A stretch of 64,000 nucleotides of DNA from an uncultured Caulobacterales bacterium (GCA_964412525.1 CAYPOX010000002.1:27-64026), one strand, 5' to 3'; shown: positions 24,446-51,279, numbered from the stretch's first letter. Notes: a model not told the origin generated them from the letters alone. A program made the numbers and translations.

Positions 24446-26341
24446 TTAGATCAAGGCGTCCGTTTCGGCATCGAGCGAACGCGCGCCCGCATCCGCCTCG
24501 GCGAGGCCCGGCCGGCCTTCGGCGAGACCCGATTCCAAGAAATGCTGGAGATAGGTGATCAGGCCGAGATTGGACTCAGGGCCGGCGTTCACGAAATCGG
24601 CGACGTCCGGATTCTCCGCGGCGTAGAAGACCGGATCAAAGCCGACGAGCCCGTCCGTCGTCCGGTCGCCCGCCAGAATCTCCGCCTCGCCGAATTGCAG
24701 ATAGTGGACGAACGGGTCGACCGGTTGGCCGTTCGTGTCCACGGCGGCGGCGATGTCCGGATTGGCGGCGCGGTAGGCCGCCGGGTCGAAAAAGGGATTG
24801 GGGTTGAACTGCCGGCCGCCCGAACCGTCCGGCGTGTCGAGGGCGGATCCTTCACGGACGTAGTGCTCGAGCGCGGTGTCGTAGGTGACGACGTCGAGGC
24901 TCGTTTGGGTCGAGGCGTCCTGCTCCAGATAAAAGGCCTCGTCGAACATCGCATCGACGGACAGAAGCGGCGAATATTCGCGCCCCTCCTCCAAGCCGAC
25001 ATCGAACCAATGGGCGAAGCCGTCCAGAGCCGTCGTCACCCCGGCCGCCGCAAGATCCGCGTTGCCGCCGCGGCCGAGATAGAACGCTTGATCGAAGAGG
25101 GCGACCTCGAATTCCCGCAGATCATCCGCTACGAACACCACCTGCTCCCAAGCACCCAACTCTTCCAAGAAGGTGATGCGAAGGCGCAGATCGCCTGCGG
25201 TCAGATCCGCGCCGCTCGGCATCAAGCCGCTCGGCACGTCGACGATCTGGTCCCAAGCATCGTCGCCATTAAGTTCGAAATAGAACCGAGGCGCCTGGCC
25301 GAGCCCGTCCGGCCCGGCCGCCGGATCGATCTCCACGATCGCAGCGTAAGGACTTGGCGCTTGCGCCGGATCGACGGTTCCGAGCGCCGTGGACGTCAAT
25401 GTCTGAGGCTCCTGATCGCTGCGCGCCAGAATCGCGTCCTCGGCGCCAAAATCAAACCAAGTCGCGATCCGATCGATCGCGGGCGCGTCTGTCGGGGTCA
25501 ACGCCCCGTCCACCAGCAAAAGATCCGGCCCCTCGTCGCCAAACAGGCTGAGCGGTCCGGCGAACCCCTCCAGACTGACCAGATCAAGCCCTTCCTGGGC
25601 GATCACCTGCACGCCCCCGAGCCCGGCGTCCGGGCCAAGCTGAACGAGGTCGTTGCCGCCCGTGCCGGTCAGACCGCCGGCGCGCAATCCGTCTTGGGCG
25701 ACGTCCGCGGTGGTGAGGACCGGCGCATTGTCGCCGGCGTTCAACACGCCTCCGGCCTGGGGCGCGAGCGCCAACACCAATTGGTAGGCGCCGCCTTGGG
25801 GATCGAAGAAAAGCTCGGCCTGCAAGGTCTCCGCCGTCACGTCCGCGCCCACCCGAAAGGGCTGATCCGGAAAGATCACGCGATAATCCCAGATCGTATC
25901 GCCCGTCGCCTCCACGAACAGAATGGACAAGGGCTCCGGATCGAGCTCCGGAAAGACGCCGCGGGCCACGCCGACGTCATAAGGCGCGGCCGCAGCGGTC
26001 TCCGACACGTCGACCGCGCGGAGATCGCCCGGCTCCGCCGGCAAGACCACGATCAACTCATCCAAGGCGCTGAAACTCGGCAACAGCGCGTCGCCCGCGC
26101 CGAACGTCCCGGACGCGCCGTCCAGAGGCGCATCGCCCACGCCCACGCCGAAGGTGTCCGCGCCGGGGCCGCCATAAGCGACCGTCGGGCTTTGCCCAAG
26201 GCCGACGATGAGATCGTCGCCGTCGCCGCCGATCAACTGATTGACCCCGGTTCCGAGCGGAGTGAAGTCAAACAAATCGTCGCCGCCGCCCCCGAGGGCG
26301 AATTCGGTCTCCGCGGCGTTTTGTTCGCTGAAAGATCGCAT
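24446..26341 (-). CDS. secreted repeat protein with N-terminal RTX-like Gly/Asp motifs and a C-terminal four-repeat 'FDxxxYLxxNPDV' module
   Basis: 631 aa; AAGGAG lies 7 nt before the ATG; no signal peptide. N-terminus GGGGDDLFDF...LIGGDGDDLIVGLG...YGGPGADTFGVG. C-terminus FDPAAYRAANPDIAAAV..HYLQFGEAE and FDPVFYAAENPDVADFV..LQHFLESGLAEGRPG. The 745-aa plus ORF is its shadow. Confidence 0.75.
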   Translation of the reverse strand: MRSFSEQNAAETEFALGGGGDDLFDFTPLGTGVNQLIGGDGDDLIVGLGQSPTVAYGGPGADTFGVGVGDAPLDGASGTFGAGDALLPSFSALDELIVVLPAEPGDLRAVDVSETAAAAPYDVGVARGVFPELDPEPLSILFVEATGDTIWDYRVIFPDQPFRVGADVTAETLQAELFFDPQGGAYQLVLALAPQAGGVLNAGDNAPVLTTADVAQDGLRAGGLTGTGGNDLVQLGPDAGLGGVQVIAQEGLDLVSLEGFAGPLSLFGDEGPDLLLVDGALTPTDAPAIDRIATWFDFGAEDAILARSDQEPQTLTSTALGTVDPAQAPSPYAAIVEIDPAAGPDGLGQAPRFYFELNGDDAWDQIVDVPSGLMPSGADLTAGDLRLRITFLEELGAWEQVVFVADDLREFEVALFDQAFYLGRGGNADLAAAGVTTALDGFAHWFDVGLEEGREYSPLLSVDAMFDEAFYLEQDASTQTSLDVVTYDTALEHYVREGSALDTPDGSGGRQFNPNPFFDPAAYRAANPDIAAAVDTNGQPVDPFVHYLQFGEAEILAGDRTTDGLVGFDPVFYAAENPDVADFVNAGPESNLGLITYLQHFLESGLAEGRPGLAEADAGARSLDAETDALI

Positions 26342-26505
26342 GGCTCCGGCTCCTTAAGGGCTTCGCGTGAAAGGGGTTCGGCTGTCGGGCTGTTGCGCGG
26401 CGGCCCTGCGATCGGCGCGGGCCGCGTCTTTGGTACAGTCAGTCGCTGTACTTCCTGTAAAGCACAATGCGCCGCGCGACGAAACCGGGGCGCCGGCTTT
26501 GCGCG

Positions 26506-27003
26506 TCAGCTCGAGAGCATGGGCGCGCGGGTCCAGACCTCCGCGCCCAAAGTGCGCCCTTTCACTGTCGACCAGGCGCCGGCCATGCGGTCGTCTCCCG
26601 TCACCTCGAACAGGGCCGCGCCGCCATTGAACGCGATCGCCAGCGCCTTGGCGGAGGCGACCCCCAAGCCTTGATAGCTTTGGCCCTTCATGGCGCCGCT
26701 CTCTATGCGCCAATGCACGGCGTAGACATGGCCGGCAGGCCGGATGTCCACGGCCCCGGCGTAACGGGCACCGTTGGGCGCGAAGCCTTCGATCCGCCAC
26801 CGGCCGATCAGATCGACCCGCGGCGCCGGTTCGGGCGCCGGCGCGGGGGTCGGGCGTTTGCGGAACCAGCCGGCGGCGCGCCGCCAGAGGTTATGGATCA
26901 GACGGAGCGGATCACGCGGGGCGGCCGCGGAGTCGCGGCGAAGGGTCGTCGTCGTCATGTCGTGTCGTCGTTCGGACGGATCAGGGGCGGCGCGCGGGAT
27001 CAT
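26506..27003 (-). CDS. hypothetical protein, translationally coupled to the cadherin-like gene
   Basis: 165 aa. Its ATG (27003-27001) overlaps the upstream TGA (27002-27000) as ATGA. The C-terminal ~100 aa look beta-rich (GRWRIEGFAPNGARYAGAVDIRPAGHVYAVHWRIESG...). No family recognised. Confidence 0.5.
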   Translation of the reverse strand: MIPRAAPDPSERRHDMTTTTLRRDSAAAPRDPLRLIHNLWRRAAGWFRKRPTPAPAPEPAPRVDLIGRWRIEGFAPNGARYAGAVDIRPAGHVYAVHWRIESGAMKGQSYQGLGVASAKALAIAFNGGAALFEVTGDDRMAGAWSTVKGRTLGAEVWTRAPMLSS

Positions 27004-30000
27004 GCGATCGCATCAATCGGCAGGCCGAAAAAGGCGACCCCATCGTCGGCGAGGCCGTCGGCGACGCCCGCATCCCGCGCCTCTTCGCCGGGCGCATAGG
27101 TCAGATCCCCGGTGATCGGATCGCGCAGCCGGAAGACCGGCACGGCCCCGGCCGTCTCCTCCAGAACGCCGCCAAAGCCGACGCCCTCAAACCGGGCTTG
27201 GCCGAACAACGCGTCGCGCTCATCGGGATCGTCGGTGAACACATAGCTGCCGGTAGTCGGATCGAAGAGACGAAAGACAGGCACGCTGTCTTCCAGGCCG
27301 ACGCGGTCGCTTGGGAACACTTGGATCGCGAAATCGGGATCGGCGAGGAAATCCGGCGAGGCGTCAAGCGCGGCCCGCTCGCTGGCGGTCGCGGTCAAGA
27401 GTTCGCCGCCGGCGGCGAGATTGTCAAAGGCGGTGAGCGTCACCGGCGCAGTGAGATCGAAGAGCGGCTCGCCCTCCACGTCATAGACGTAGAAGGCGAT
27501 CCCTTCGAAGCGGAAGGAGGCGGGATCGAAGAATTGCGAGGTGCCGACCGCGGCGGTGGTGTAGAAATGGGAGCCGCGATTGAGATCGAAAAAGCGCACA
27601 ATGGCCGTCGCGCCGTCAAAGGCCTCCGGGAAGGCGGAGAACACCGCCGCCTCGAATTGGAAGCGCGGATCGGCGATCACCGCGTCCCGCTCGACCGGAT
27701 CGATCGTGAAGAAATGGGTTCCGGTTTCAAGATTGACGAAGCGGAAGACGAGTTCGGAGCCGCCGAGGCCGGCGTCCGCGGCGTTCAGGGTCAACAGATC
27801 GAGGGGCTCGTCGTCGAAGGCCGGCGATGCGTCGAGCGCCGCTTGCTCCTCCGGGCTGACGGAGAACAGGAAGTCGCTCGCCGACGGATTGAAATAGCCC
27901 GGCACGATCACCGCCCGATCCTCCACCGTGCGCGGATCGGTTTCGTCTCCCACAAGGTCGAGAATTTCGATCGTCAGCGCGCGGCTGTCGCCGGTCACCG
28001 CGCCGTCCCGCGCCGCGACCGTGATCTCATAGAAATTGTCGCCATTCGCGTCCGCAGGCGCTTCGAAATCGGCGCGCGCGGCGAAGATCAGATCGCCGGT
28101 GAGCGGATCTACGAGAAAATCCGCCGCATCCGGCCCGCCCAAAATGACGAGGTCCGGATCATCGCCCGGATCGGGATCAAAGGCGGAGACCGCCGCCACG
28201 CCGCGGCTGTTTTCAAGCACGCGAATGATCCCGTCCTCGCCGGTCTGACCCAGTTCCGGATCGACGATCACGGTCGGCAGATCGTCCACGCCCGTGACCG
28301 TGACCTGAATCTCGGACTCCGCGACCCCGCCTCGGGCGTCCAGGACGGCGTAGGTCGCGACGTCGAGCGCGCTTTCGCCCGGCAGGAGCACGTCAAAGGC
28401 CCCGTTCGGGTCATAGGCGAAGAAGCCGTCATTGCCGACCGTGAGGATCGCGCCGGACGGCAAGATGAGAGGCGCGTCCACGGCCTCGGCGAGACCGTCC
28501 ACGGCGGTCACCACGAAGGGATCGCCGTTCGGATCGAAATCGTTGAAGAAGGCGTTGCCGTTCAAGACTTGGTCCGCCGGCGTCGTCACGTCGTCGACGC
28601 GCGCGGTCGGCGGATCGTTCTCCGCCACCTGGATCGTCACCGGGCCGGTGGAGAGGCCTTGGGGATCCTTCAACTCCACGTCGAAGCTGCCCATCCGCAT
28701 TTGCGGATTGGCGAGCACGAAGATGATCTCTCCCGCGGCGATCTCGGAGGAGGCGATCTCGATCGCGACCGCTTCGGGATCGGAGGTGCGCGCGAGAAAG
28801 CCGTTGGTGGCGTTCGAGACGAAGAAGATGAGCTCGTCCTGGGTCGCGTCCGGATCAACGCCGATCAGATCCTCGGCCGTGACCGGCACCACCGGCACGC
28901 TTTCGATCGTGACGGTGCGATCGCCTTCGATGACGGGGACGTCGTTCTCGCCTTCGATCGTCAGCGTCACACGGCCGAAGCTGATCCGATCGGTCGTGTC
29001 GATGATCGCGTATTGGAAGCTGTCTTCGGCGGTCTCTCCGTCAAGGAGGAAATCAAAGGCGTCGAGAGGATCGTAGAAAACGTCGCCGTCCTGGACGAGC
29101 TGCACGAAGGCGCCGGAATTCAGATCTGCGTCCAGGCGCAATTCCGGTTCGAACACCAGCGTGCCGATCCCATCCTTGAAGGGCCCGAACAGATCGACCC
29201 GGATGAAGTCGCCGTCGACGTCGAAATCGTTTTCAAGCACGTCGAGGGAGAGGATTTCATTCTCCCCCACCCGGCCGTCTTCGCCCACCTCGACCACATC
29301 GTCGATCGCCGTCGGATCGTCCTCCACCGGCGTCACGGTGAGATTGATCGTGATTTGGGCGGTCTCCTGATCGTCGGTGACCTCGACGATCAGGGAGTCG
29401 CTGCCGAAGAAATCCGGGTTCGGCGTGTAGAGGAGCTTCGTCGTCGGGGTGACGGGGTCGATCTCGGTCGTCGGCTCGAGCTTCGCCGCCTCAACAGTCT
29501 CCCGCACATTAAGAAAGAGATTGGTCTCGCCGTTTGCGGGCGCCGTCACGATCCGCCAGGACAAGCGGTCTCCGTCATCCGGATCGAACACCTCAAGCAA
29601 GGAGGTTAGATCGACATCGACGGAGTCCTCCGGGAGGGTTAGCGACGCCGTCGCGCCTTCCGTAAAGACCGGCGCGTCGTTCACCGGCAGGATGGTGACG
29701 TCGACTTTGAGGGTCGCGGTCAGCCCCGCGCTGTCCGTGGCGCGGATGACGAAAACGTCCGTCCCGGTCTCGTTCAAATTTGGTATATATTCGATGCCTG
29801 TCGGCGTGTTGCCGACTTTGTCGATGCTTGGAACGACGAAGGGGACCCCCTCCACCACGCCGCGGGTCGGGAGAAGATTCGCGTCGGTCTCGTCGAAATC
29901 CCAGCGGATATTTTCGCCAAGATCGCGATCGTCGACGAGCAGCAAGGCGTCAAGATCGAAGGGCGTGTCCTCCGTCACCTCGATCGCAATCTCCGTGCGT

Positions 30001-31370
30001 TCGTCGAAATCGGGCGGCGATCCGCCGACGGGCGGCGCATCCGCCACGCCGGCGATCTCGATGGTGACGACCGACGTGTCCTTGTCGCCAAAGGCGTCGA
30101 CGATCGTGACCTCAAAAGTGTCGATTCCAGGCGCGCCGCCCTCGACGAGGAAATCGAACTTCGCGTTCGGATCGTAGATGAGCGTTTGCGTGTCCTTGTC
30201 GAACAGAACCGCGCCTTTGGTTCCAGCCGTCGACACGCTGTCGATCACAAGATCGCCGCGCGGACCATCGATGTCGGAATCATTCCCAAGAATGGGCTCG
30301 TAAAGATTGTTCGTCCGTTCAATCTCCGAGCCGGCGAAGACATCATCAGCCGCCGTCGGCGCGTCGTTCTGGCCGGTGACGGTGACGAGCACCGCGCCGG
30401 TCGTTTGCTCGCCGTCGCCATTGCGCGCGGTGAAGGGAACACGGTCCGTCGCCGTTTGACCCTCCGCGAGGGTCTCGAAACCGCCGGCCGGATCGTAGCT
30501 CAAAATCCCCTTGTCAGCGTCGAAGATCGCCGTTCCCACCAAATTCGGCGCATCGAGCTCAAACTCAAAGATTTCATAGGATTCTGGAACGCCGTCAGGA
30601 TCCGAGACAACCGCAAGCACTTCATTCAACGTGATCGTCGCCGCAGGACCGTCTTCCTTGGCGCTGAGCGGCGCCTCGCCCGCCACCAGCGGATCGTTGA
30701 CGCCGATCAAGCGTATGACGCTGGTGACCTCGCTGACGCCGCCGACGCCGTCGGAGATCTCGACCGTGACGGAGTCGAAGAATTCGTCGCCCACGCGGAC
30801 GAAGTTGAACTGATCGTTCGGGTCGTAAACATAGGTCCCGTCAGCCTGGACGGTGACGAGGGCGCCGGACGCGAGCGTCGTCTCCACGCCCACCGCGGCC
30901 GCCGATCCCTCCACCTTGCTGACAAAGATGATCTCGCCGTCGGCGTCGAAAGCGTCTTCGAGGAGTTCGCTCGCGACGGGCGGGCCGTCTTCAGTGGTCG
31001 AGACCTCCTCGTCCGGCGCAAAGGGCGCGTCGTTCTGGCCAGTGATGGTGACGACCACCAAGGCGGTCGCTTGGTTCCCGTCTTCATCCTCAATCGTGTA
31101 AGCGAAGGAGTCCGTCGCCGTTTCACCCTCGGCCAGGAACTCGAATAGGCCACGTCCGTCATAAACGACCGTGTCGGCGTCCGGATCATAAACGGCCGTT
31201 CCGATCGTGTCGGAATCGTCCACCCCGACAATGACCAGCGGGGAGCCTTCGGCGTCGCTGTCGTTCAAGATCAGCGTTTTCGAGCCGATGGTGAGGCGGG
31301 CGTTGTCCTCAAGCAGGCTCGCGGCGTCGTCCAAAGCGATCGGCGGCGTCGTCATAAAGGCATCCGTCAT
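27000..31370 (-). CDS. 1456-aa cadherin-like/VCBS-repeat surface protein with C-terminal DUF5648-like repeats
   Basis: About ten ~100-aa units end in the cadherin-like/VCBS signature (VVVTITGQNDAPFA, VLVTVTGQNDAPTA, VDVTILPVNDAPVF, IQVTVTGVDDLPTV...). The last ~250 aa carry four repeats such as VPVFRLFDPTTGSYVFTDDPDERDALF. No Sec signal (MTDAFMTTPPIALDD). Confidence 0.8.
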   Translation of the reverse strand: MTDAFMTTPPIALDDAASLLEDNARLTIGSKTLILNDSDAEGSPLVIVGVDDSDTIGTAVYDPDADTVVYDGRGLFEFLAEGETATDSFAYTIEDEDGNQATALVVVTITGQNDAPFAPDEEVSTTEDGPPVASELLEDAFDADGEIIFVSKVEGSAAAVGVETTLASGALVTVQADGTYVYDPNDQFNFVRVGDEFFDSVTVEISDGVGGVSEVTSVIRLIGVNDPLVAGEAPLSAKEDGPAATITLNEVLAVVSDPDGVPESYEIFEFELDAPNLVGTAIFDADKGILSYDPAGGFETLAEGQTATDRVPFTARNGDGEQTTGAVLVTVTGQNDAPTAADDVFAGSEIERTNNLYEPILGNDSDIDGPRGDLVIDSVSTAGTKGAVLFDKDTQTLIYDPNAKFDFLVEGGAPGIDTFEVTIVDAFGDKDTSVVTIEIAGVADAPPVGGSPPDFDERTEIAIEVTEDTPFDLDALLLVDDRDLGENIRWDFDETDANLLPTRGVVEGVPFVVPSIDKVGNTPTGIEYIPNLNETGTDVFVIRATDSAGLTATLKVDVTILPVNDAPVFTEGATASLTLPEDSVDVDLTSLLEVFDPDDGDRLSWRIVTAPANGETNLFLNVRETVEAAKLEPTTEIDPVTPTTKLLYTPNPDFFGSDSLIVEVTDDQETAQITINLTVTPVEDDPTAIDDVVEVGEDGRVGENEILSLDVLENDFDVDGDFIRVDLFGPFKDGIGTLVFEPELRLDADLNSGAFVQLVQDGDVFYDPLDAFDFLLDGETAEDSFQYAIIDTTDRISFGRVTLTIEGENDVPVIEGDRTVTIESVPVVPVTAEDLIGVDPDATQDELIFFVSNATNGFLARTSDPEAVAIEIASSEIAAGEIIFVLANPQMRMGSFDVELKDPQGLSTGPVTIQVAENDPPTARVDDVTTPADQVLNGNAFFNDFDPNGDPFVVTAVDGLAEAVDAPLILPSGAILTVGNDGFFAYDPNGAFDVLLPGESALDVATYAVLDARGGVAESEIQVTVTGVDDLPTVIVDPELGQTGEDGIIRVLENSRGVAAVSAFDPDPGDDPDLVILGGPDAADFLVDPLTGDLIFAARADFEAPADANGDNFYEITVAARDGAVTGDSRALTIEILDLVGDETDPRTVEDRAVIVPGYFNPSASDFLFSVSPEEQAALDASPAFDDEPLDLLTLNAADAGLGGSELVFRFVNLETGTHFFTIDPVERDAVIADPRFQFEAAVFSAFPEAFDGATAIVRFFDLNRGSHFYTTAAVGTSQFFDPASFRFEGIAFYVYDVEGEPLFDLTAPVTLTAFDNLAAGGELLTATASERAALDASPDFLADPDFAIQVFPSDRVGLEDSVPVFRLFDPTTGSYVFTDDPDERDALFGQARFEGVGFGGVLEETAGAVPVFRLRDPITGDLTYAPGEEARDAGVADGLADDGVAFFGLPIDAIA

Positions 31371-31426: not shown

Positions 31427-32965
31427 TCACTCCGTGAAGGCGGTCTCCAAAGGCAAACCGAACGCCTTCATCGCCGGTGCGGTGTTGACGAGGAAGCGAT
31501 CGGCCTGCTTGCGCAACTCGGCCTTCGCCGCGTCGTCATTCTCAGCAGGCTTGCCTTCAATCATCACATTGCGTCCTTTGGATCTCAGATCCGCCAACAC
31601 GCGATCGACGATGCCGTCCGCCGACCCGTCGCCGAAATGCTTGGCGTAGATCTGATCCATGGCGCTCATCGCGAACCCGGCGCCCAAGCCGGAGGCGAGC
31701 ACGTGGACGGTGCGTTCCGTCAAAGTGCGGTCCAAGACCTCGCGGTTGAACGGCTTCGGCGGCGCGCCATCCTTCCGCATCACCGGCGACGCCTGGCCAG
31801 AGATCAAAAGCGCTTCGACGGCGCTGTAAGCCTTCTCAAAGGTGTCGGCCCCGGATGCGGCATGGAGTTCGCGGATCGTCTTCGGGCCGTCCGCCAGGGC
31901 CTCGACCGCGGCGCGCACGACCGGCGTGTCGAATTTGGCCTGCCGTCCCATGAGCTGGGCTTCGAACTTAATCCCCTCGCCGCCGACCCGTAGCGCGATC
32001 ACGCTGTCGGCGAGAACGTCCCGCTGTTCATTGCGGCTCAATCGGCGACCGCCGCGGGTGTAAATGTCGCGCCGGAACTGGGCGTTGGTGCAGTAATCGC
32101 GCGCCAGCTCCCGCAACTCCATAGTGGGCAGCTCGTTGACAAGTTGGAGCTGATCCTGTGTCAACGTGTATCGGAAATTGTTTTCCGCAAACGTCGCCGA
32201 CGCCGCGAAGGTGAGCTTCGCCTCCCCCATCTCCGCCATCGCTTGGGTGACGTAGAGCGGATACCAGGCCTGATTGAGATACTCCTGGGCGAGATAATTC
32301 ACGGGCTTTTTCTCGAGCCCTTCCATCATCTTCGACATGCGCGCATTGGTGGCGAAAGCGACGGCCTTGGCGTCCTTCAGCTTCTCGCCGAATTGGATCG
32401 CCTGGCGCACCTTATGGGTGGATTGGCCCGGCACGATCGCCGCATATTCGGAAAACAGCCGCTGGAGCGGCGCGATCGTCGCCCAACCCGGCAGGGTGTT
32501 GTAGCTCACATAAACGAGCCCCCCCGGCGCCAAGAACTTCCGGATGAACTCCACCATCTCCCGGCGGTTCTCCGGCGTGATCCAGGAATAGACGCCATGG
32601 GTCACGATATAGTCGAACTGCGGAAAATCCGCATCGACCGCATCGGCGAAGGCCATTTCGTGAAACGCGACATTGCCGATATCGCCCTCCCGCGCGAGCC
32701 GTCGCGCATTGGAGATGTGCACGGGCATGAAATCGATCCCATGCACCTCCGCCTCCGGATTGGCCGCGGCGAAGACATTGGTGGACAGGCCGTTGCCGCA
32801 ACCAAGTTCGCAATAGCGAAAGCGCGCGCCGTCATGCTCCGGCGGCGCGACGCCGCGCGTGACGGCGGCGAAGTTCAAATGCGCCGGGCCGAGCTCTTGG
32901 AAAAATTGGGTCGTGTATTCCTGATCGACAACATACCCGTCTGACCAATCGGACATGGGTGACAT
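31427..32965 (-). CDS. SAM-dependent methyltransferase of the 'methyltransferase regulatory domain' (PKMT-like) family
   Basis: Track ORF 31427..33007; ATG 32965 follows AGGAAAGGA. RYCELGCGNGLSTNVF (motif I) and FDYIVTHGVYSWITPENRREMVEFIRKFLAPGGLVYVSYNTLPGW, which I recognise as the hallmark of this ~520-560-aa family. Confidence 0.8.
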   Translation of the reverse strand: MSPMSDWSDGYVVDQEYTTQFFQELGPAHLNFAAVTRGVAPPEHDGARFRYCELGCGNGLSTNVFAAANPEAEVHGIDFMPVHISNARRLAREGDIGNVAFHEMAFADAVDADFPQFDYIVTHGVYSWITPENRREMVEFIRKFLAPGGLVYVSYNTLPGWATIAPLQRLFSEYAAIVPGQSTHKVRQAIQFGEKLKDAKAVAFATNARMSKMMEGLEKKPVNYLAQEYLNQAWYPLYVTQAMAEMGEAKLTFAASATFAENNFRYTLTQDQLQLVNELPTMELRELARDYCTNAQFRRDIYTRGGRRLSRNEQRDVLADSVIALRVGGEGIKFEAQLMGRQAKFDTPVVRAAVEALADGPKTIRELHAASGADTFEKAYSAVEALLISGQASPVMRKDGAPPKPFNREVLDRTLTERTVHVLASGLGAGFAMSAMDQIYAKHFGDGSADGIVDRVLADLRSKGRNVMIEGKPAENDDAAKAELRKQADRFLVNTAPAMKAFGLPLETAFTE

Positions 32966-42778: not shown

Positions 42779-43067
42779 CGGGTGTCCCCTCTTTGCAAAC
42801 CGATCAGCGAGCACAGCGCGCGCGCACGGACGCCGCACGCGCCGCACACTTGCCTACTCGGGTTGCGTAACTAACAAACACCCGTGAGTCTTCCAACCCG
42901 CCCAAGGCGCGATTGTGAATCTTTCTTTAGATTTTTTTTAACCAGATCCGCCCGGAACGGCGGCCTTGCTGAATTTGGATTCTAGCGCGATGGTTAGGAA
43001 GTTGCTATATAAGGACGGATGGCGACGCGGTCGCGGCCGCGCGCGGAGGCATTAGGACGAATCGCTC

Positions 43068-43394: not shown

Positions 43395-43486
43395 GTCGAG
43401 CCCGGATTAAACAGAACCCGAGTTCGGGGGGACGCGAATCATATGGCCTGCAGGCAGGCGATATATAAAGAGACGGAGCGCGCATC

Positions 43487-45118
43487 ATGAGCGCCGCGCT
43501 GTTGGCCTTTCCGCAAGGCCCCGCGCCCTGGTCCAACCAGGAGCGCGCCGACGTTTATCGCGCCTTTCGTCTCCTGACCCAACAAGGCGCGGCGATCGAA
43601 CTGGTCGAAGGCGCCGCCGAAGACGGCGCGCCCTGGTTCGCCTTCGTGGATGCGGAAACGGGCGAGTCCATCCTTCATCTTGGCCGGGAAGGCGCCGGCG
43701 TGACCGCAGTCGACCGCTTGGGCCGGGTGCTGGCCCGCGGCCGCGACATGCGCCAGGTGATCGACCAAGCCGCCGGCGCGCGGCTGGCGCCGGTCTCGCC
43801 CTTTGGCGGCGCCGGCGAGGTGTTCGCCCATCCCGCGACCGGGCTGGCCGCCCTCGTCATCTCGCTCGCCGTGGTGGCGGAGACCGAGGCCTATGCGCAA
43901 TTGGCGCGCTTGGCGATCGACGCGGATGAGGCGGATCTCATTTCGGACGATCGGATGATCGTCGCCTCCGCGACGACGACCGTTGCGGCCGCTGCGCCTG
44001 ACGCGGGTTCCGACGCCGCCCCGAAGACGACGCCGACGCCGGCCGAAGCGGCGCAGGCCGCGGTCGCGGCGGCCCTGCCTGCACCGGGCGCGGCGTCGAT
44101 CGACATGGATTTGGCCGCGGTCTTGGCGTCCGCGATCGACGCGGCGCTGGCGGCGGCGACGTCCGCAGAGAGCTTGGCGCCCCTTCCCGCCCCCGAAACC
44201 GTGGCGGCGACGATCGATGCGGCGCGGCTGGAGCTCGACGGGCTTCGCGCGACGGCGGACGCCTTGCGCGCCGCCGCCGACGACGGATCGAGCGCCATTC
44301 TCGCGCAACGCCTTTTGGATGCCGCCGACATGGTCGATGCGCGCGTCGCGGCGGCGGAGGACCGGCTCGCCGAGGCGGAGGCGGCCTTGGAGACCGCCCT
44401 CGCCGAGGGCGAGACGACGGCGGCGCTTGAGAACGGCTCGGCGGTCCTGGGCGGCGACGGCGACGACGTGATCGCGGCCGGCGACGGCGACGACGTCATC
44501 TTGTCGGGCGCCGGCGCCGATTTGATCGACGCGGGCGACGGCGACGACGTGGTGTTCGCCGGCGTCGGAAGCGACGTGGTTCTGGGCGGCGACGGCGATG
44601 ATCTGATTTCGGCCGGCGACGGCGACGACGTGGTGGACGGCGGCGACGGGAACGACGTGATCCAAGGCGGTGCGGGCGACGACGTGATCGCCACCGGCGC
44701 GGGGGATGACGTGGTGGACGCCGGAGACGGCGACGACGTGCTGTTCGTCGGCGACGGCCACAATGTCGTGGACGGCGGCGACGGACGCGACCTCTTCGTG
44801 CATGACGCGACGAACGGCGTCGCGGTCCTGCGCGGCGGCGAAGGCATCAACGAGTTCGTCGCGGAAAGCGGCGACGGCGTCTATGTCCTCACGCCCGGCG
44901 ACATCGACGCCATCTATCTTCGAGGCGAAGAAGGCCATCTTGTCGTCGAGAACTTCGTCGTCGGCGAAGACTGGATCTATGTCGCCGATTCTCGGCTCGC
45001 CGACGTTTCTGTCGAATGGACCCATGGCGGCATTCGCATCGCTTTCAGCGAGGACGCCAGCCTGACCCTCGCCGGCTATGACGCCCTTCCGACGGCGCTC
45101 GACGATCTGTTGATCTGA
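43487..45118 (+). CDS. 543-aa RTX (hemolysin-type calcium-binding) protein, T1SS substrate candidate
   Basis: No signal peptide. Unrecognised N-terminal ~130 aa, an Ala-rich helical middle, then about 12 consecutive nonapeptides ([38 protein letters not shown]...). Located immediately upstream of the ABC/MFP genes. Confidence 0.85.
   Translation: [543 protein letters not shown]
44447..44797 (+). repeat. tandem 27-nt RTX nonapeptide-coding repeats (GGCGACGGCGACGACGTG-type)
   Basis: aa 321-437 of the 543-aa protein. The DNA-level repetition is visible as recurring ggcgacggcgacgacgt(g/c). Confidence 0.85.
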
Positions 45119-45237
45119 ATAGGGTGCGGCGTCTTTGACGGGCGCGCATGGATGCGCGTATGGCTGGCGCCGTCCGCGGAGCCGGCCCGGAGCGACCCGC
45201 GCCGAACGACGGAACGACCATTGAGGAACGAATTCTG

Positions 45238-47010
45238 ATGTCGCGATCCCCTGCGCCCGTGGCGGCGCTGTTGAAAGAGGCTTTGTCCCAGGTCCGCCGC
45301 GCCCTGGTGATCGTCGGCGCCTTCAGCTTGGCCTTGAACCTGCTGATGCTGACGGCGCCGCTCTATATGTTCCAAGTTTTCGACCGGGTGCTCGGCTCCG
45401 GCCGGGTCGAGACGCTGTTGCTGCTCACCCTGATCGCGGGCTTCGCGCTGATGACCTATGGCGCGCTGGAAGCGATCCGCCAGCGCCTGCTCGCCCGGGT
45501 GTCGACCTGGCTGTCGCTCGCCGCCTCGGACGATCTGATCGACCGCTCCGTGCGCGCGGCGACCCGCGGCGCGCGCTTTGGCGGCCAGCCTTTGCGCGAC
45601 CTGGCCACCATTCGCAGCTTTCTCGGCGGCCAGGGCGTGACGCCGCTCTTCGACGCCCCCTGGATGCCGATCTTTCTGGGCGTTCTCTTCCTGATGCACC
45701 CGATTCTGGGCATGCTGGCCGTGGGTGCGGCGATCATCCTGTTCTGCCTGGCGGTCCTGAACGAAGTTCTGACCCGCAAGCCCTTGGGCGAAGCCTCCGG
45801 CCTCCAGTCGACGCTTCTCAACCAGACCGACGCGGCGGTGGCCAACGCCGAAGTGCTCGAGGCCATGGGCATGACCAAGGGCCTGGTGAAGCGCTGGATG
45901 CGCCAGAACGCCGAAGTGCTGACCCGCCAGCAGGCCGCCGCCGATCGGTCGGGCATGCTGCTCGGAGCCACGAAATTCACCCGCCTGTTCGTGCAGGTCG
46001 GCATTCTGGGCGCCGGCGCCTATCTCGTCCTGCAAGGCCAGCTCACCTCCGGCGCGATGATCGCGGGCTCGGTGTTGATGAGCCGGGCGCTCGCCCCGGT
46101 GGAGCAGGCGATCGGCGCCTGGCGCCAGCTTGTCGCCGCCCGCACCGCCTATGATCGTCTGAAAAAGGTGATCGCCGCCCTGCCAGACCGAGAGCCGTCC
46201 ATCGAGCTGCCCGAGCCCAAGGGCAAGCTTGAGGTGCAAGGCGTGGTCTACGCTCCGCCCGGCGCGGCGAAGCCGATCCTGAAAGGCGTCTCCTTCGCTT
46301 TGGCCCCCGGCGAGGCCATGGGCATGATCGGCCCGTCGGCTTCCGGCAAATCCACCTTGTGCCGGCTTCTGGTCGGCGCGGCGCCGCCTTCCTCCGGCTC
46401 GGTGCGCCTTGACGGAGCGGAGATGAGCCAATGGGACGCCGAAGCGCGCGGCCCCTATATCGGCTATCTCCCCCAAGACGTGGAGCTGTTCCAAGGCACG
46501 GTGCGCGACAACATCGCCCGGCTGCAGTCGGACGCGTCCGACGCGGACGTGGTCGACGCCGCCCAACGGGCGGGCGTGCATGAGATGATCCTGCATCTGC
46601 CCAAAGGCTATGACACGGAAATCGGGCCGCGCGGCGCCCAGCTCTCCGGCGGCCAGCGCCAGCGACTGGGCCTCGCCCGCGCCTTGTTCGGCGCGCCCAA
46701 ACTGATCGTGCTCGACGAACCCAACGCCAGTCTCGACCAGGCCGGCGAGGCGGCGCTGCAGGACTCGATCTTAAAGGCCAAGGAAACCGGCGCCACGGTC
46801 ATTCTCGTCGCCCACCGCCCGGCCATGATGAAGCATGTGGACAAGGTTCTGCTCATGCGGGACGGCCAGGTGGAGGCGTTCGGGCCGCGGGATCAGGTGC
46901 TCGCCAAGGTGATGCGCCCCGCCCCCGTGCCGACGCCCAAGGCGGGCGGCGGCCAAAGCGGTCCGGCCGGCTCGGACATGGTGACCATCACGGACATGGC
47001 GGGCGGCTGA
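45238..47010 (+). CDS. type I secretion system ABC transporter (PrtD/AprD/HasD-type, no C39 peptidase domain)
   Basis: Track ORF 45148..47010; ATG 45238 follows GAGGAA. TMD start LNLLMLTAPLYMFQVFDRVLGSGRVETLLLLT is typical of PrtD-type transporters. Walker A GPSASGKSTL, signature LSGGQRQRLGLARAL, Walker B LIVLDEPNASLD. Confidence 0.9.
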   Translation: MSRSPAPVAALLKEALSQVRRALVIVGAFSLALNLLMLTAPLYMFQVFDRVLGSGRVETLLLLTLIAGFALMTYGALEAIRQRLLARVSTWLSLAASDDLIDRSVRAATRGARFGGQPLRDLATIRSFLGGQGVTPLFDAPWMPIFLGVLFLMHPILGMLAVGAAIILFCLAVLNEVLTRKPLGEASGLQSTLLNQTDAAVANAEVLEAMGMTKGLVKRWMRQNAEVLTRQQAAADRSGMLLGATKFTRLFVQVGILGAGAYLVLQGQLTSGAMIAGSVLMSRALAPVEQAIGAWRQLVAARTAYDRLKKVIAALPDREPSIELPEPKGKLEVQGVVYAPPGAAKPILKGVSFALAPGEAMGMIGPSASGKSTLCRLLVGAAPPSSGSVRLDGAEMSQWDAEARGPYIGYLPQDVELFQGTVRDNIARLQSDASDADVVDAAQRAGVHEMILHLPKGYDTEIGPRGAQLSGGQRQRLGLARALFGAPKLIVLDEPNASLDQAGEAALQDSILKAKETGATVILVAHRPAMMKHVDKVLLMRDGQVEAFGPRDQVLAKVMRPAPVPTPKAGGGQSGPAGSDMVTITDMAGG

Positions 47011-47089
47011 CGATTCGCCCGCCCCGCATCTTTTGCGAGACGCCTGACCTTCCCATCTATCCCGCGACCGCAAGGGAGTTCGCGAGACC

Positions 47090-48544
47090 ATGAAACCGCC
47101 CTTCACCCTCACCGGATGGATTCCGAAAGGCGCGCCGTTCAGCCGCCGCGCCAAGAAAGAGGCCGACGCGCCGAATCTCGAGGCGATCGAGGACGCCGAA
47201 GCGCCGCCGCCGATGCCGGAAGGCCCTTCCCCCTTTGCGGAGAAGCCGCAACTCATCAGCCTGTCGAAATCCACCATCGCCGCCGGCGCGGTGGTGGTCG
47301 GCGTGTTCTTCGTCGGCTTTGGCGGCTGGGCGATGACCGCGCCGCTCTCCTCCGCCGCGATCGCGCCGGGCGTGATTTCGCCCAATGGCTATCGCCGGAC
47401 GGTGCAGCATCTGGAAGGCGGCATCATCGCGGACATCCTTGTCGAGGACGGCGACACGGTGCGGGCGGGCGACCCGCTGGTCGTGCTCGACGACGTGCGC
47501 GCCCAGGCGAATTACGAAGTCATCCGGAACCAAACCTTCACCAATCTCGCCATCCAGGCGCGCCTGCTCGCCGAGCTGGCGGGCGACGTCGAGATTGGTT
47601 TTCCCGCCCAGGTCCGCGCCGCCATGAACCGCCCCCAGGTGGCCGACGTGGTGACCGCCCAAAGCAATCTCTTCGACGCCCGGCGCGAGTCCCGCACGAA
47701 GCAGATCGAGATCCTCCAGGCGCGCATCCGCCAATTGGACGAGCAAATCATCGGCTTTGAGGAGGAGATCGCCTCCCAGGATCGGCAGATCTCCATTTTG
47801 GACGAACAGATCGCCGACCAGCAGCAGCTCTGCGACAAAGAGCTTTGCCTGAAGTCCAATCTGCTCGGCCTGCAGCGCCTGCAAGCGGAGGTTGAAGGCG
47901 AACGCGCCCGCAACCGCGCCGCCATCGCCCAGGCCCGCCAATCGATCGGCGAGACCGAACTCCAGATCGCCGCGGTCGACACCGAGCGGCTGGACGAAAT
48001 CAACACGCAGCTGACCCAGGTCCGCGGCGAACTCGCCGAGCTTGAGGAACGCCTGATCGTCGGCGAGGACACGGTGAAGCGCACCATCATCGCCGCCCCG
48101 ATCGACGGCACGGTGGTCAATCTGCGCTACAAGACCTTGGGCGGCGTGATCCGCGCCGGTGAGCCGATCGTGGACGTGGTGCCCGACGACGAAGAGTTGT
48201 TGATCGACGCGCGGGTCTCGCCCGTGGACATCGACAACGTTAAGCCGGGCCTCAAAGCCTCGGTCGTGTTCTCCGCCTTCAAGCAGCGCAATATCGGCCG
48301 CATCGAAGGCGTGGTGCGCACGGTCTCCGCGGATGCGCTGGTCGACGAGAACACCGGCATGAGCTATTTCGCCGCCCGCATCGAGGTCGACGACGAGGTG
48401 GTGAAGCGCCAGCTTCCGCCCGATGCGGAGCTGACCCCGGGCATGCCGGCCGAGGCCTTCATCATGACCGGCGACGGCACCGTCTTCAGCTATCTCATGG
48501 ATCCGGTGACCGGCACGCTGCGCCGGGCGATGCGGGAGTTCTAA
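47090..48544 (+). CDS. HlyD-family type I secretion membrane fusion protein
   Basis: 484 aa with a single N-terminal TM (AAGAVVVGVFFVGFGGWAM). TVQHLEGGIIADILVEDGDTVRAGDPLVVLDD (lipoyl-like motif), a long coiled coil, and C-terminal ...GMPAEAFIMTGDGTVFSYL. Confidence 0.9.
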   Translation: MKPPFTLTGWIPKGAPFSRRAKKEADAPNLEAIEDAEAPPPMPEGPSPFAEKPQLISLSKSTIAAGAVVVGVFFVGFGGWAMTAPLSSAAIAPGVISPNGYRRTVQHLEGGIIADILVEDGDTVRAGDPLVVLDDVRAQANYEVIRNQTFTNLAIQARLLAELAGDVEIGFPAQVRAAMNRPQVADVVTAQSNLFDARRESRTKQIEILQARIRQLDEQIIGFEEEIASQDRQISILDEQIADQQQLCDKELCLKSNLLGLQRLQAEVEGERARNRAAIAQARQSIGETELQIAAVDTERLDEINTQLTQVRGELAELEERLIVGEDTVKRTIIAAPIDGTVVNLRYKTLGGVIRAGEPIVDVVPDDEELLIDARVSPVDIDNVKPGLKASVVFSAFKQRNIGRIEGVVRTVSADALVDENTGMSYFAARIEVDDEVVKRQLPPDAELTPGMPAEAFIMTGDGTVFSYLMDPVTGTLRRAMREF

Positions 48545-48600
48545 GCGCCCGTCTGGACGCGCCGACCGCCCCCCGTCTAGGACCCTGGGCGGGGGATTTC

Positions 48601-49566
48601 ATGACCATTTGGCCGCTCGGATTCCGTCTCGACGACGGCGCGCTCGACAAGGCGCGCGCCGAGCCGGCCCGCATCCTGCGGGTCGAGGGCTGGGCCGCCG
48701 GACCGCCGCCGCGCGTGCGGTTGCGGCCGGCCGCCGAGGCGCTTGCTCTGTCGCCGACCCTCGCCCTCAAGACCTGCCGGCCAGACGTGGCGCGCGACCA
48801 TGAGGGGCTCGATTCCTGGTGCGGCGTGGCGCTTGAATGGCGCCGGCCGCCGCCGCTCGCCGACGGCGCGGCTCTCGTGCTTCCGGACGGCCGGCAGGCG
48901 CCTTTGCCGCCCGGCGCGCGCGCCGTGCTGAACGGTCCGGATCTTCCTTATGCGGGCCTGCTGGACGATCCCGCGCCATGGGGCCGGGACCAGCTTTACG
49001 GCCAGGGACCGCCAGATCCCGGCGTGGCGTCGGACTTCATCGATCTTGCGCGCAAGCTCACGCCGCCGGTGCTCGACGTGGGATGCGGCGCGGGACCTCT
49101 GGTGGCGGCGCTCCGCGCGGCCGGCGTCGACGCCTATGGGGTCGAGTTGGATCAGCCGCGGATCCGCGAGGCGCTTCTGCCCGAGGCGCGCCCCTATGTG
49201 ACCCTGATCGATCCGGATCGGCCCCTGCCCTTCGCCGACAAGACCTTTGGCGGCGTTCTCGCCTTCGAGGTCTTGGAGCATGTGCCCGATTGGCGGCGGT
49301 TGGTCACGGAGATGCTGCGGCTGGCGCGCCGCGCCGTCGCCGTATCCGTACCGGATATGAGCGCGGTGCCCCGCGGCCATCCCCATGGCGCCGTGCCCTG
49401 GCATATTTTAGACAGCGACCATGTGCATTTTTTCACGCCCCCCGCCCTTGCGGCGCCGTTTCGCGCGCAGGGTTGCGCGCTCGAATGGCGGGCTTTGAAT
49501 GCGGAACGACTGGAAGGCGGCGTTTGGCCGGGCAGTCTCGGTCTTTTGGCGCGTTTGCCCGGTTGA
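48601..49566 (+). CDS. class I SAM methyltransferase with ~150-aa N-terminal beta-rich domain (paralog 1)
   Basis: PPVLDVGCGAGPLVAALRAAGVDAYGVELD (motif I), FGGVLAFEVLEHVPDW. The N-terminal LRVEGWAAG...CRPDVARDH...ALEWRRPPP domain is shared with 49968..50984. Confidence 0.75.
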   Translation: MTIWPLGFRLDDGALDKARAEPARILRVEGWAAGPPPRVRLRPAAEALALSPTLALKTCRPDVARDHEGLDSWCGVALEWRRPPPLADGAALVLPDGRQAPLPPGARAVLNGPDLPYAGLLDDPAPWGRDQLYGQGPPDPGVASDFIDLARKLTPPVLDVGCGAGPLVAALRAAGVDAYGVELDQPRIREALLPEARPYVTLIDPDRPLPFADKTFGGVLAFEVLEHVPDWRRLVTEMLRLARRAVAVSVPDMSAVPRGHPHGAVPWHILDSDHVHFFTPPALAAPFRAQGCALEWRALNAERLEGGVWPGSLGLLARLPG

Positions 49567-49625
49567 ACTGAAGGCGTTTGACGATCGATACTGCCACGCG
49601 CAGCGAGCAACGGCGGAGGAACGGC

Positions 49626-49913
49626 ATGGCGTCGCCGGAAGAACGTGCGAAAGCGGACATCGGCGGCGCGCCGGCCGGAAAACCGGGGGAATTCTCGGCG
49701 GATTTCGACGAGTTTTCGCCGGAACAGATGCGCGCCTATCTGGACGCCGTCGTCGCGGAGGCCAAGGCGGCCGGCCGGGAGGTGACCTCGATCTGCATGC
49801 CGCCGGATTTCGACGCCTTTCTGAAATCCGCGGGCGCCAGCTATCCCGGCGCAGAGCTGACGGTGGCGGCGGATTATGAAGGCATGGTCTACGGCGTCGC
49901 CTCGCCCGCTTGA
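49626..49913 (+). CDS. hypothetical small protein
   Basis: Internal ATG of track ORF 49578..49913 (MASPEERAKADIGG...). Lies between the two paralogous methyltransferase genes. No motif recognised. Confidence 0.35.
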   Translation: MASPEERAKADIGGAPAGKPGEFSADFDEFSPEQMRAYLDAVVAEAKAAGREVTSICMPPDFDAFLKSAGASYPGAELTVAADYEGMVYGVASPA

Positions 49914-49967
49914 TCTGATGCGCGCCGGCGCTGCGGCGCGCCGGGACGCCGTAACGACGGAGTTTTC

Positions 49968-50984
49968 ATGACCCTTTCTCCAGGGCTGGGCGGCCGCGCC
50001 GTCCGGCTCGACCTTGGCCTATCCGGCGAGTCCGGAACCCTCGACGCTGTCGTGATCGAACCGACCGGCGTGTTGCGCGCGCTCGGCTGGAGCGCCGATC
50101 GGGCCGGCCCGCCCGAAGCGCGGCTGCAGATCGATGCGGCGAGCCTTCCGCCCGACGCGGTTTATCGCACCCCGCGCCCGGACGTGCGCGCCACGCGTCC
50201 GGCCCTGCCCCTGTTCTCGGGCTTTGCGCTCGAATGGATCCGACCGCCGGCCGGCGGCCGGGGCGCGCTCGCCCTTGGGGTCGATCTGGTCGCCCGCCTG
50301 CCTGCGGAGGTGCTTGCGGCGCTGGACCGGCCGGCGCCCCATTATCCAGAGCTTCTCGACGCCGATGGGGTGTGGAGCCGGGACGACATCTACGCCTCCG
50401 GACCGCCGGATCCCTTCGTCCAGCCGGAGGTGCTGGAGCTCGCCCTCGGCCTGCCCGCGCCGATCCTTGATGTGGGCTGCGGGACGGGCGCGCTTGTGGC
50501 GGCGTTACGGCGTCGCGGCGTTGCGGCGTTCGGTTTGGAGCTCGACCGCCCGGAGATCGCCGCCGCTTTGGATCCCCAGGCGCGCGGCGCGGTCGCGTTT
50601 TATGACGGCGGCCGCATGCCCTTCGCCGACGAGGCGTTTGAAAGCGTGTTCGCGACGGAAGTGCTGGAGCATGTGCCCGCCTTCATGCCTCTGATCGACG
50701 AAATGGCCCGGATCGCCCGGCGCGGCCTTGGACTGACGGTTCCGGACATGAGCGCCGTGCCGGCCGGCGCCGCCGCGGGGATCGTCCCCTGGCATCTCTT
50801 GGAATCGACCCATGTGAATTTCTTCACCTGGCGGAGCTTGAAGGCGACGCTCGCGCGCCGGTTTCCGGACGTGACCCTGTTCCAGATTGGAGCGCGGCCC
50901 GTCGAAGGCGCGCATATGCCCGGCAGCCTCGGCGCCCTCGCCTTTAAACCGGGCGGACGTCCGCTCTTTCCGCAAGATCGCTGA
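49968..50984 (+). CDS. class I SAM methyltransferase with N-terminal beta-rich domain (paralog 2)
   Basis: APILDVGCGTGALVAALRRRGVAAFGLELD, FESVFATEVLEHVPAF, LTVPDMSAVPAGAAAGIVPWHLLESTHVNFFT. Collinear with paralog 1 (VSVPDMSAVPRGHPHGAVPWHILDSDHVHFFT). Confidence 0.75.
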   Translation: MTLSPGLGGRAVRLDLGLSGESGTLDAVVIEPTGVLRALGWSADRAGPPEARLQIDAASLPPDAVYRTPRPDVRATRPALPLFSGFALEWIRPPAGGRGALALGVDLVARLPAEVLAALDRPAPHYPELLDADGVWSRDDIYASGPPDPFVQPEVLELALGLPAPILDVGCGTGALVAALRRRGVAAFGLELDRPEIAAALDPQARGAVAFYDGGRMPFADEAFESVFATEVLEHVPAFMPLIDEMARIARRGLGLTVPDMSAVPAGAAAGIVPWHLLESTHVNFFTWRSLKATLARRFPDVTLFQIGARPVEGAHMPGSLGALAFKPGGRPLFPQDR

Positions 50985-50996
50985 CCGCCGCAATCC

Positions 50997-51269: not shown

Positions 51270-51279
51270 GAGCGCTGTC

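Follow-up and report, generated by a model that had tools for sequence, protein, structure and literature searches.

We analysed 64,000 nucleotides of DNA from an uncultured Caulobacterales bacterium (GCA_964412525.1 CAYPOX010000002.1:27-64026; this whole stretch is referred to as the window), within which a preliminary description had delimited a secretion supercluster at 24446-50984 that combines a type I secretion system (T1SS), leaderless giant repeat proteins and methyltransferases. The island is a plasmid-borne T1SS with several giant leaderless surface proteins, and a gene between the two largest of these encodes a relative of the outer-membrane protein-lysine methyltransferases (OM PKMTs). 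The features on which the argument turns are the following.

24446-26341, minus strand: 631-aa leaderless acidic protein (p631) with degenerate GGxGxD motifs in its N-terminal part and the tail ...TDALI
27000-31370, minus strand: leaderless cadherin-like/Big_9 repeat protein, 1456 aa, with Big_9/Cadherin_4 x8 and two C-terminal DUF5648 units
31427-32965, minus strand: OM-PKMT-family protein-lysine methyltransferase homologue, 512 aa, no leader (Methyltransf_12 and PF10119)
33085-33108, minus strand: intrinsic-terminator-like hairpin, a 10-bp stem with 9 G-C pairs, then TTTCTTTT
33134-42778, minus strand: giant leaderless RTX protein, 3214 aa from ATG (HemolysinCabind)
43068-43394, plus strand: XRE-family helix-turn-helix (HTH) regulator, divergent from the giant gene (HTH_3, E = 2.9e-11)
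43487-45118, plus strand: 543-aa RTX protein (rtx543; HemolysinCabind, E = 1.3e-20)
45148-47010, plus strand: T1SS ATP-binding cassette (ABC) permease/ATPase of the PrtD type, without a C39 or CLD N-terminal domain (TIGR01842; ABC_membrane and ABC_tran)
47090-48544, plus strand: T1SS membrane-fusion protein (MFP), an HlyD-family adaptor (TIGR01843; HlyD_3)
48601-49566, plus strand: mt321, an N-terminal all-beta domain followed by a class I S-adenosylmethionine (SAM, AdoMet) methyltransferase (Methyltransf_23/11)
49626-49913, plus strand: 95-aa open reading frame (ORF; p95) between mt321 and mt338
49968-50984, plus strand: mt338, a paralogue of mt321 (46% identity) with the same two-domain architecture
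53067-55724, plus strand: 885-aa protein (p885) with a 5'-nucleotidase C-terminal domain and DUF5648 (Pfam), beyond the range of the preliminary description

All the genes that the preliminary description had named were found at the coordinates it gave, and the GC content at third codon positions (GC3) of all these ORFs was of the coding type, 0.78-0.87 (ORF list and codon-position GC screen). The range 24446-50984 holds for the genes inside it, but the island is wider and reaches at least p885, and the four methyltransferases counted in that range come down to three; three others (3948-4907, 9036-10142 and 62146-63789) belong to the flanking glycan clusters.

In NCBIfam, the ABC protein scored 717.5 bits against TIGR01842 (cutoff 510.15) and the MFP 385 bits against TIGR01843 (cutoff 208.65), and Pfam matched them to ABC_membrane and ABC_tran and to HlyD_3, respectively; with both above the cutoffs, their sequences identify a PrtD-type T1SS. 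As had been described, Pfam scans of ORFs that make up 91% of the window contained no TolC-like outer-membrane protein or OEP family, no HlyC-family acyltransferase, and neither Peptidase_C93 (LapG) nor LapD_MoxY_N, and tblastn searches with two OEP proteins gave a best E value of 0.22. The absence of HlyC and LapG/LapD, which had been presented as notable, carries little weight: HlyC belongs to pore-forming toxins and LapG/LapD to LapA-type adhesins, and these subtype-specific parts are not general to T1SS. The outer-membrane component may be encoded elsewhere in the genome, for which E. coli TolC and Caulobacter RsaF are precedents; a related stretch of the Rhodospirillum rubrum plasmid NC_007641 likewise has no outer-membrane component annotated, and in the relatives L167 and L168 OEP is linked to ABC and MFP.

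The proposal of a T1SS with several leaderless repeat-protein cargos is supported. By inspection, none of the four large proteins in the described range has a basic or hydrophobic N-terminal leader. The giant (HemolysinCabind E = 7.8e-18, 7 stretches) begins with an 'FDxxFYLxxNPD' module, has scattered RTX blocks and ends in ...STADFIF; its composition is 15.6% Asp, 46 Lys (1.4%) and 0 Cys, with a net charge of about -541. The cadherin-like protein, which matched Big_9 (E = 5.7e-66), Cadherin_4 (E = 9.3e-63) and DUF5648 (E = 9.8e-30) in Pfam and the tandem-95 repeat in NCBIfam, contains 14 Lys (1.0%) and 0 Cys and ends in ...IDAIA. In rtx543, which has 1 Lys in 543 aa, a conserved N-terminal domain (aa ~10-136) with a hydrophobic helix (~113-132) is followed by an Ala-rich linker, RTX repeats and the tail ...LDDLLI; p631 has 0 Lys and 0 Cys, and p885 has 3 Lys, one Cys and the tail ...VDLIG. 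All candidate cargos are very acidic, four of them lack Cys (p885 has the single one), and an Asp with three hydrophobic or small residues at the C-terminus is present in 5 of the 5 candidate cargos versus 0 of 30 other genes of the window. Export of all five by the T1SS through C-terminal signals is predicted from these sequences, the giant and the adhesin-like cadherin-type protein being predicted cargos, p631 and, as the fifth, p885 probable ones, and rtx543 either a cargo or a regulator partner. The giant is also the predicted main substrate of the adjoining PKMT, and the cadherin-like protein a second candidate; p631 is not a possible lysine-methylation target, because it has no Lys.

The preliminary description had called p631 an inverted RTX protein. 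The RTX assignment does not hold, as Pfam and NCBIfam gave no significant RTX or other match beyond the degenerate N-terminal GGxGxD-like motifs; the inverted layout does hold in another form, as the C-terminal 206 aa match aa 1-234 of the giant (42% identity, E = 1e-45). The module at issue, 'FDxxFYLxxNPDxxAA...HY...G..EGR', has no Pfam match and occurs at the giant N-terminus (42077-42778), at the p631 C-terminus (24446-25120), at the N-terminus of a PKMT-linked giant in L168 (about 2060-2476) and in two RTX proteins of the R. rubrum plasmid (L169 9255-9527 and 16635-17111); it may be a surface anchor. We also observed that p631 (0 K), rtx543 (1 K) and p885 (3 K) are nearly lysine-free and that 46 and 14 lysines remain in the giant and the cadherin-like protein, whose genes flank that of the PKMT; avoiding lysine and methylating it can be raised as two possible answers to one pressure.

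The 512-aa methyltransferase comprises a class I methyltransferase domain followed by a dimerisation/middle region (Methyltransf_12 E = 1.4e-16, MethyTransf_Reg PF10119 E = 1.6e-20; Pfam), and its sequence matched those of Rickettsia PKMT1 (5dnk, E = 5.6e-28) and PKMT2 (5doo, E = 3.7e-25). Its AlphaFold (AF2) model (pLDDT 87.7) matched PKMT1/2 over the full length in Foldseek (5dnk_A, E = 5.2e-24 over 525 columns, TM 0.61-0.63), followed by Rv2067c, another protein-lysine methyltransferase (8e-11), and by generic methyltransferases (~1e-7). The residues of RpPKMT1 named as contacting AdoMet (PMC11784438), Asp102 and His146, align to D78 and H123, which are invariant across 24 homologues. Sequence and model agree in identifying the enzyme as a member of the OM-PKMT family, and a charged motif (R285...D290...FRRD 297-300), together with cyanobacterial and Rhodobacterales relatives, hints at subfamily A (KmtA-like) over R (Rickettsia-like). 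The enzyme is predicted to methylate lysines of the adjoining T1SS cargo in the cytoplasm, before export. The substrate of PKMT1/2 is OmpB (PMC8232902); in Acinetobacter sp. Tol 5, KmtA targets the trimeric autotransporter AtaA, in which over 130 lysines are methylated without a consensus motif; the KmtA paper, published in 2024, pointed out that most OM-PKMT-bearing species have no trimeric autotransporter adhesins and left the targets there open (PMC11784438).

The hairpin at 33085-33108 begins 26 nt past the stop codon of the giant gene and precedes the ribosome-binding site and ATG of the PKMT gene, which suggests that the structural gene is highly expressed and that read-through to the accessory genes is attenuated.

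The preliminary description had tied the methyltransferases to T1SS cargo and had proposed gene-neighbourhood conservation (methyltransferase, RTX and ABC/MFP) as a check, which we carried out. A one-genome-per-species scan gave 80 loci with PKMT homologues at 32-44% identity, which together with three earlier loci made 83, and six-frame, stop-to-stop ORFs within 10 kb of the PKMT gene were searched with a regular expression for at least 3 RTX motifs. Such an ORF was present in 27 of the 83 loci. Within 1 kb of the PKMT gene there were 14 RTX ORFs, compared to 1.9 expected from the density at 4-10 kb (P = 1.6e-8), and six more were found within 2 kb, where 3.7 in all were expected from that density (P = 2.6e-9). 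Counting about 86 homologous loci in all, RTX genes gather within 2 kb of the PKMT gene, in many cases immediately upstream. When ten ORFs directly upstream of PKMT homologues on the same strand were checked with Pfam, 8 had HemolysinCabind; the ten include an RsaA_NTD S-layer protein (L056), two cadherin/Big_9 proteins (L051 and L073, in which a protein with cadherin/Big_9 repeats as well as RTX precedes the PKMT gene) and three DUF4214 proteins, and Pfam identified four more ORFs near PKMT homologues as RTX proteins. An Azospirillum RTX ORF 1.2 kb from the PKMT gene was considered as a high-GC alternative-frame artefact, but this was rejected, as it encodes a serralysin-type RTX protease with the motif HEIGHALGLKH. 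Homologues of the T1SS ABC protein and MFP were also present in 12 of the 80 genome loci, and a neighbour-joining tree of the family distributes the RTX-linked cases over at least 10 subclades.

Some closer relatives show the link as well. In L001, a PKMT gene whose product is 82% identical to that of the window follows the gene of a >3144-aa giant (44.5% identical to the window giant) and precedes a cadherin-like gene, and giants at 29-31% identity precede the PKMT genes of L167 and L168. Four homologues at 45-47% identity were looked up, of which two (L167 and L168) stand in the order giant RTX, PKMT, ABC, MFP, OEP and the other two in housekeeping contexts. The PKMT-like gene is thus linked to T1SS cargo across many genomes, and to that extent the proposed tie stands. 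In L168 (10001-13089), two PKMT-like genes follow a 2606-aa RTX giant in tandem, before MazE/Fic, ABC, MFP and OEP genes, a pair that recalls Rickettsia PKMT1/PKMT2. In L035, L038, L042, L043, L046 and L081 (about 11600-14600), an ORF of ~910 aa, similar from locus to locus, comes after the PKMT homologue; in the two cases submitted to Pfam (L035 and L042), it was identified as a ClpB-type AAA+ chaperone. With no RTX genes nearby, this alphaproteobacterial clade indicates that the PKMT family has at least one other stable context.

The tie to T1SS cargo is not supported for mt321 and mt338. The mt321 family is rare in a word-indexed protein search; from the 211 relatives found by a metagenome scan, we retained 80 loci with 552 kb in total. 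MFP or window-cargo homologues were found in 0 of these 80 loci, which held only one ORF with at least 3 RTX motifs, and homologues of the window's glycan genes were found in 29 of the 80; for relatives matching only the C-terminal domain, glycan genes were present in 12 of 17 loci of at least 6 kb. A model of mt321 (pLDDT 77.7), with an N-terminal beta domain and a Rossmann fold, had fold matches to generic or sugar methyltransferases only. The family co-occurs with glycan genes in part of its loci, the pattern that the preliminary description had itself named as refuting its proposal, and the role of cargo modifiers that had been suggested for the two enzymes is not upheld: they are probably glycan or small-molecule O-methyltransferases of the plasmid's O-antigen-like pathway, a moderately supported assignment, and possibly methylate a glycan receptor, the alternative offered in the preliminary description. 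We rejected the idea that they are paralogues of the methyltransferases of the window's glycan clusters, as the only similarity was a weak match of the methyltransferase domain to 3948-4907 (29% over 123 aa), and the remaining ones gave no match. The gaps from the MFP gene through mt321, p95 and mt338 are 57, 59 and 54 bp, with no terminator-like site between the MFP gene and mt321; the first lies past mt338, at 51129-51199. The small ORF p95 matched no Pfam or NCBIfam family and has no homologue in the 80 mt321-family loci; it has coding-type GC3 and was called as a 95-aa gene in two independent assemblies (L084 and L085).

The XRE protein is 53% identical to its homologue on the R. rubrum plasmid, and homologues with E = 1e-31 to 1e-35 adjoin genes with the rtx543 N-domain in L029, L044 and L082; in L058 the XRE homologue stands alone. 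Judged by these sequences, XRE and the rtx543-N-domain gene are a conserved pair, occurring in the window (43068-45118) and in four other T1SS/PKMT islands (L029 3436-5748, L044 16727-18734, L082 17537-19526 and L169 3395-4595). In the partner proteins, the N-domain (W..Q.LAE.YR...SDEG.PWF) is followed by a hydrophobic helix and an Ala/Pro-rich linker that varies, and the C-terminal region is again conserved; among the five islands only the window's partner has RTX repeats, which also occur in P0177 among 17 family sequences fetched more widely. At 50% identity, the N-domain family comprises 1013 cluster representatives, and its members are typically about 550 aa long. The two could be a regulator/anti-regulator pair, perhaps a secretion-coupled one.

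The remaining features of the island and of its surroundings are as follows.

26506-27003, minus strand: 165-aa ORF (p165), an orphan with GC3 0.83 and an ATGA overlap with the cadherin-like gene
974-13959: left glycan block with WbqC, hexapeptide acyltransferases, an epimerase/dehydratase, a DegT aminotransferase, GT2+GT1 and GT1 glycosyltransferases (GT)
3948-4907 and 9036-10142: two class I methyltransferases in the left glycan block
58930-61182, minus strand: double GT2, in the right-end glycan block (58930-63959), an ABC-transporter-dependent pathway
61265-62236, minus strand: Wzm-like ABC-2 protein, right-end glycan block
62146-63789, minus strand: Methyltransf_24 protein, right-end glycan block
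63654-63959, minus strand: Wzt C-terminal domain, right-end glycan block

The start codon of p165 overlaps the stop codon of the cadherin-like gene as ATGA, as read directly from the sequence, and the two are translationally coupled by this overlap; p165 had no Pfam match (LIC10280_fam only below threshold, 36 bits versus a cutoff of 100) and no homologue but itself among 5.8 billion proteins. Pfam identified ParA (51241-51978) and RepA_C (56219-57157), and with these the whole 64-kb contig is probably one plasmid. Glycan genes lie at both ends of the window (1-13959 and 58930-64000), and the source contig, with RepA and ParA, measures 64,293 bp; it probably represents a circular plasmid almost in full, with a glycan cluster that continues over the junction. 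Wzt C-terminal domains recognise glycan chain-end modification; the presence of one here suggests such a modification, which would explain some of the extra methyltransferases. A megablast search of 43000-52000 against PLSDB yielded short matches to T1SS genes only (Skermanella, 79% over 174 bp) and no close relative. Genes of the Fic/Doc family and of the PIN toxin type were seen near several islands, namely in the window (17760-18173 and 22072-22536), in L168 (13456-14197, MazE and Fic, between PKMT and ABC) and, as a Doc toxin with a regulator, in the R. rubrum plasmid (L169 13077-13687).

Taken together, these findings lead us to propose, with a probability of roughly 0.55, a surface plasmid on which T1SS cargo is lysine-methylated by the OM PKMT before export and the small methyltransferases serve the glycan. 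The window would be most of a plasmid devoted to the cell surface. It brings together an O-antigen-like pathway for a glycan, a PrtD-type T1SS and five or more highly acidic, largely Cys-free repeat proteins without leaders, whose export by this T1SS would go through C-terminal signals. From the family and the neighbourhood of the enzyme we infer its substrates and timing: it would mono- or multi-methylate the few lysines of the giant (46 K) and of the cadherin-like protein (14 K) before these are threaded unfolded through the pump, in parallel to the modification of pro-HlyA lysines by HlyC before export. The likely effect would be on adhesiveness, surface amount or protease sensitivity, as in reports for KmtA/AtaA and PKMT/OmpB. 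The enzymes mt321 and mt338 would most likely methylate the glycan of the flanking clusters rather than proteins, and this glycan is possibly the anchor of the coat.

Several observations weigh against this proposal. The cargo is lysine-poor (giant 1.4%, cadherin-like protein 1.0%), and p631, rtx543 and p885 are not meaningful lysine targets because they have 0-3 Lys; a strong terminator-like hairpin stands between the giant gene and the PKMT gene; and mt321 and mt338 appear to be co-transcribed with the T1SS genes, while for full-length mt321 relatives glycan genes occur in 6 of 16 loci of at least 6 kb and the remaining neighbours vary. Cargo methylation is deduced here from family and neighbourhood, and about 70% of the surveyed PKMT homologues have no adjoining RTX genes (for example the clpB-adjacent alphaproteobacterial group, cyanobacteria, Microvirga, Methylobacterium, L002 and L166). 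RTX genes were surveyed by applying a regular expression to stop-to-stop ORFs, of which only 17 were checked against Pfam, and the surveyed loci are phylogenetically non-independent, so that the P values are optimistic. On Azospirillum plasmids, the gene of the PKMT-like enzyme and a GT4 gene overlap within a glycan cluster of the lipopolysaccharide (LPS) type, with RTX genes nearby.

Some of these points would also fit a PKMT-like enzyme that acts on a different protein of the envelope or of housekeeping function (for instance a porin, autotransporter or chaperone client), its proximity to RTX genes reflecting shared mobile cell-surface islands. The share of the family without an RTX link is consistent with this, as are the clade beside clpB, another beside HSP90, the several outer-membrane proteins methylated by rickettsial PKMTs and the scarcity of lysine in the cargo. 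However, the PKMT gene lies directly downstream, on the same strand, of unrelated cargo families (RsaA-like, cadherin/Big_9, DUF4214 and giants) in many lineages, strings of substrate, PKMT, ABC, MFP and OEP genes recur, and RTX ORFs are concentrated within 2 kb; moreover, the L001 PKMT stayed at 82% while the adjoining giant drifted to 44.5%. We therefore regard a different protein substrate as unlikely, if by no means far-fetched.

It is improbable, in our judgement, that all three methyltransferases in the described range, the PKMT-like enzyme included, serve the plasmid's glycan pathway and leave the proteins unmethylated. The window's roughly 19 kb of glycan genes and its three additional methyltransferases would agree with such a role, as would the LPS-type clusters of Azospirillum and the co-occurrence of mt321-family relatives with GT genes, but the PKMT-like enzyme matches protein-lysine methyltransferases across all four domains far better than sugar or small-molecule methyltransferases, both characterised branches of its family act on proteins, and the RTX/T1SS link persists where neither Pfam calls nor a homology screen place glycan genes alongside (e.g. 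L167). The converse, a fuller form of the preliminary proposal with a multi-enzyme protein-methylation system in which every methyltransferase of the cluster modifies T1SS cargo, we consider slightly less probable still: although mt321, p95 and mt338 trail the MFP gene at short intervals with no terminator-like site before 51129, and L029 has a weak mt321-like ORF beside the XRE/partner pair, the mt321-family loci described above are devoid of MFP and cargo homologues and often contain glycan genes, and the fold matches are to generic and sugar methyltransferases.

The preliminary description had regarded such a combination as apparently undescribed. In the literature searched, which covers only a minority of subscription-journal papers, we likewise found no account of the PKMT/T1SS-cargo pairing, and no paper that connects T1SS or RTX cargo with methyltransferases or with the methylation of lysines; a search for these terms in the text of a 2010 RTX review yielded no mention of methyltransferases or methylation. 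Enzyme family and secretion system are thus each known, and it is their conserved association for which no description was found. For bacterial lysine methyltransferases of the outer surface, the known substrates fall into only two classes, rickettsial OmpB and Acinetobacter AtaA, both of type V, and the neighbourhood pattern names a concrete target class for OM PKMTs, namely T1SS cargo, with the enzyme gene often between the cargo and pump genes. More tentatively, and at somewhat less than even odds, lysine methylation by operon-encoded OM PKMTs would be a widespread maturation step of T1SS cargo (giant RTX adhesins and RTX S-layers) in Alpha- and Betaproteobacteria, a second class of cargo modification beside acylation by HlyC, the classical cargo-modifying partner, with XRE and the rtx543-type protein as a regulatory arm. 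Methylation of T1SS cargo, if confirmed, would be relevant to the tuning of stickiness, surface load or protease resistance in giant adhesins and RTX S-layers, and culturable organisms would be available for tests: R. rubrum ATCC 11170, with the plasmid gene RRU_RS19755, Azospirillum (A. brasilense) and Novosphingobium (sp. JCM 18896).

One of the nearest known counterparts is the 53.7-kb R. rubrum ATCC 11170 plasmid NC_007641 (L169), which shares the T1SS ABC protein (46% identity), the MFP (40%), XRE (53%) and its partner, RTX proteins with the FYL-NPD module, a PKMT-like methyltransferase (37%) with an RTX protein after it, RepA, a homologue of Wzm (32% identity) next to an ABC ATP-binding gene, and also a GT and a toxin of the Doc family; rfbC is also present in NC_007641. 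It differs in having no giant or cadherin-like cargo, no mt321/mt338 pair and another gene order, and its annotation consists of names from the annotation pipeline (PGAP) only. With the LapA/LapG/LapD system the island shares a giant, repetitive, adhesin-like T1SS cargo, whereas the window has neither LapG (Peptidase_C93) nor LapD and its ABC protein is of the PrtD type rather than the LapB/HlyB type with an N-terminal CLD.

The Caulobacter RsaA system consists of rsaA, rsaD, rsaE and O-antigen genes, with RsaF unlinked. The island resembles it in its PrtD-type ABC protein and MFP, its acidic, Cys-free RTX cargo, the adjoining O-antigen-type genes and, presumably, an outer-membrane component encoded elsewhere (PMC3034196), and, by way of a relative, in that the PKMT-linked cargo of L056 has RsaA_NTD, the O-antigen-binding N-terminal domain, for which no window protein had a Pfam match. 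It differs in having several cargos, including the cadherin-like protein and the giant, and no methyltransferase has been described for RsaA.

Like the known OM PKMTs, the window enzyme combines a class I methyltransferase with PF10119, has a full-length fold match to 5dnk and 5dpl and keeps the AdoMet-contacting Asp and His; it is likewise a cytoplasmic, leaderless enzyme whose target, here a predicted one, would be a surface protein of very large size and repetitive sequence, with many modified sites and no consensus motif among them. In contrast, the known substrates are type V autotransporters exported via Sec, whereas here and in about one quarter of the homologous loci the neighbours are T1SS cargo and components; the enzyme's identity to PKMT1, at about 27% (local) or 18% (structural), is low, and activity and substrate are in this case only predicted. 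The comparison with HlyC and HlyA (hlyCABD) concerns the principle: methylation is proposed instead of fatty acylation, there is no HlyC-family gene, and the cargos are adhesin- or coat-like giants instead of pore-forming toxins, but in both systems the T1SS locus encodes a cytoplasmic enzyme whose action on internal cargo lysines would come before export, and in the hly operon, as after the giant gene of the window, a terminator follows the structural gene.

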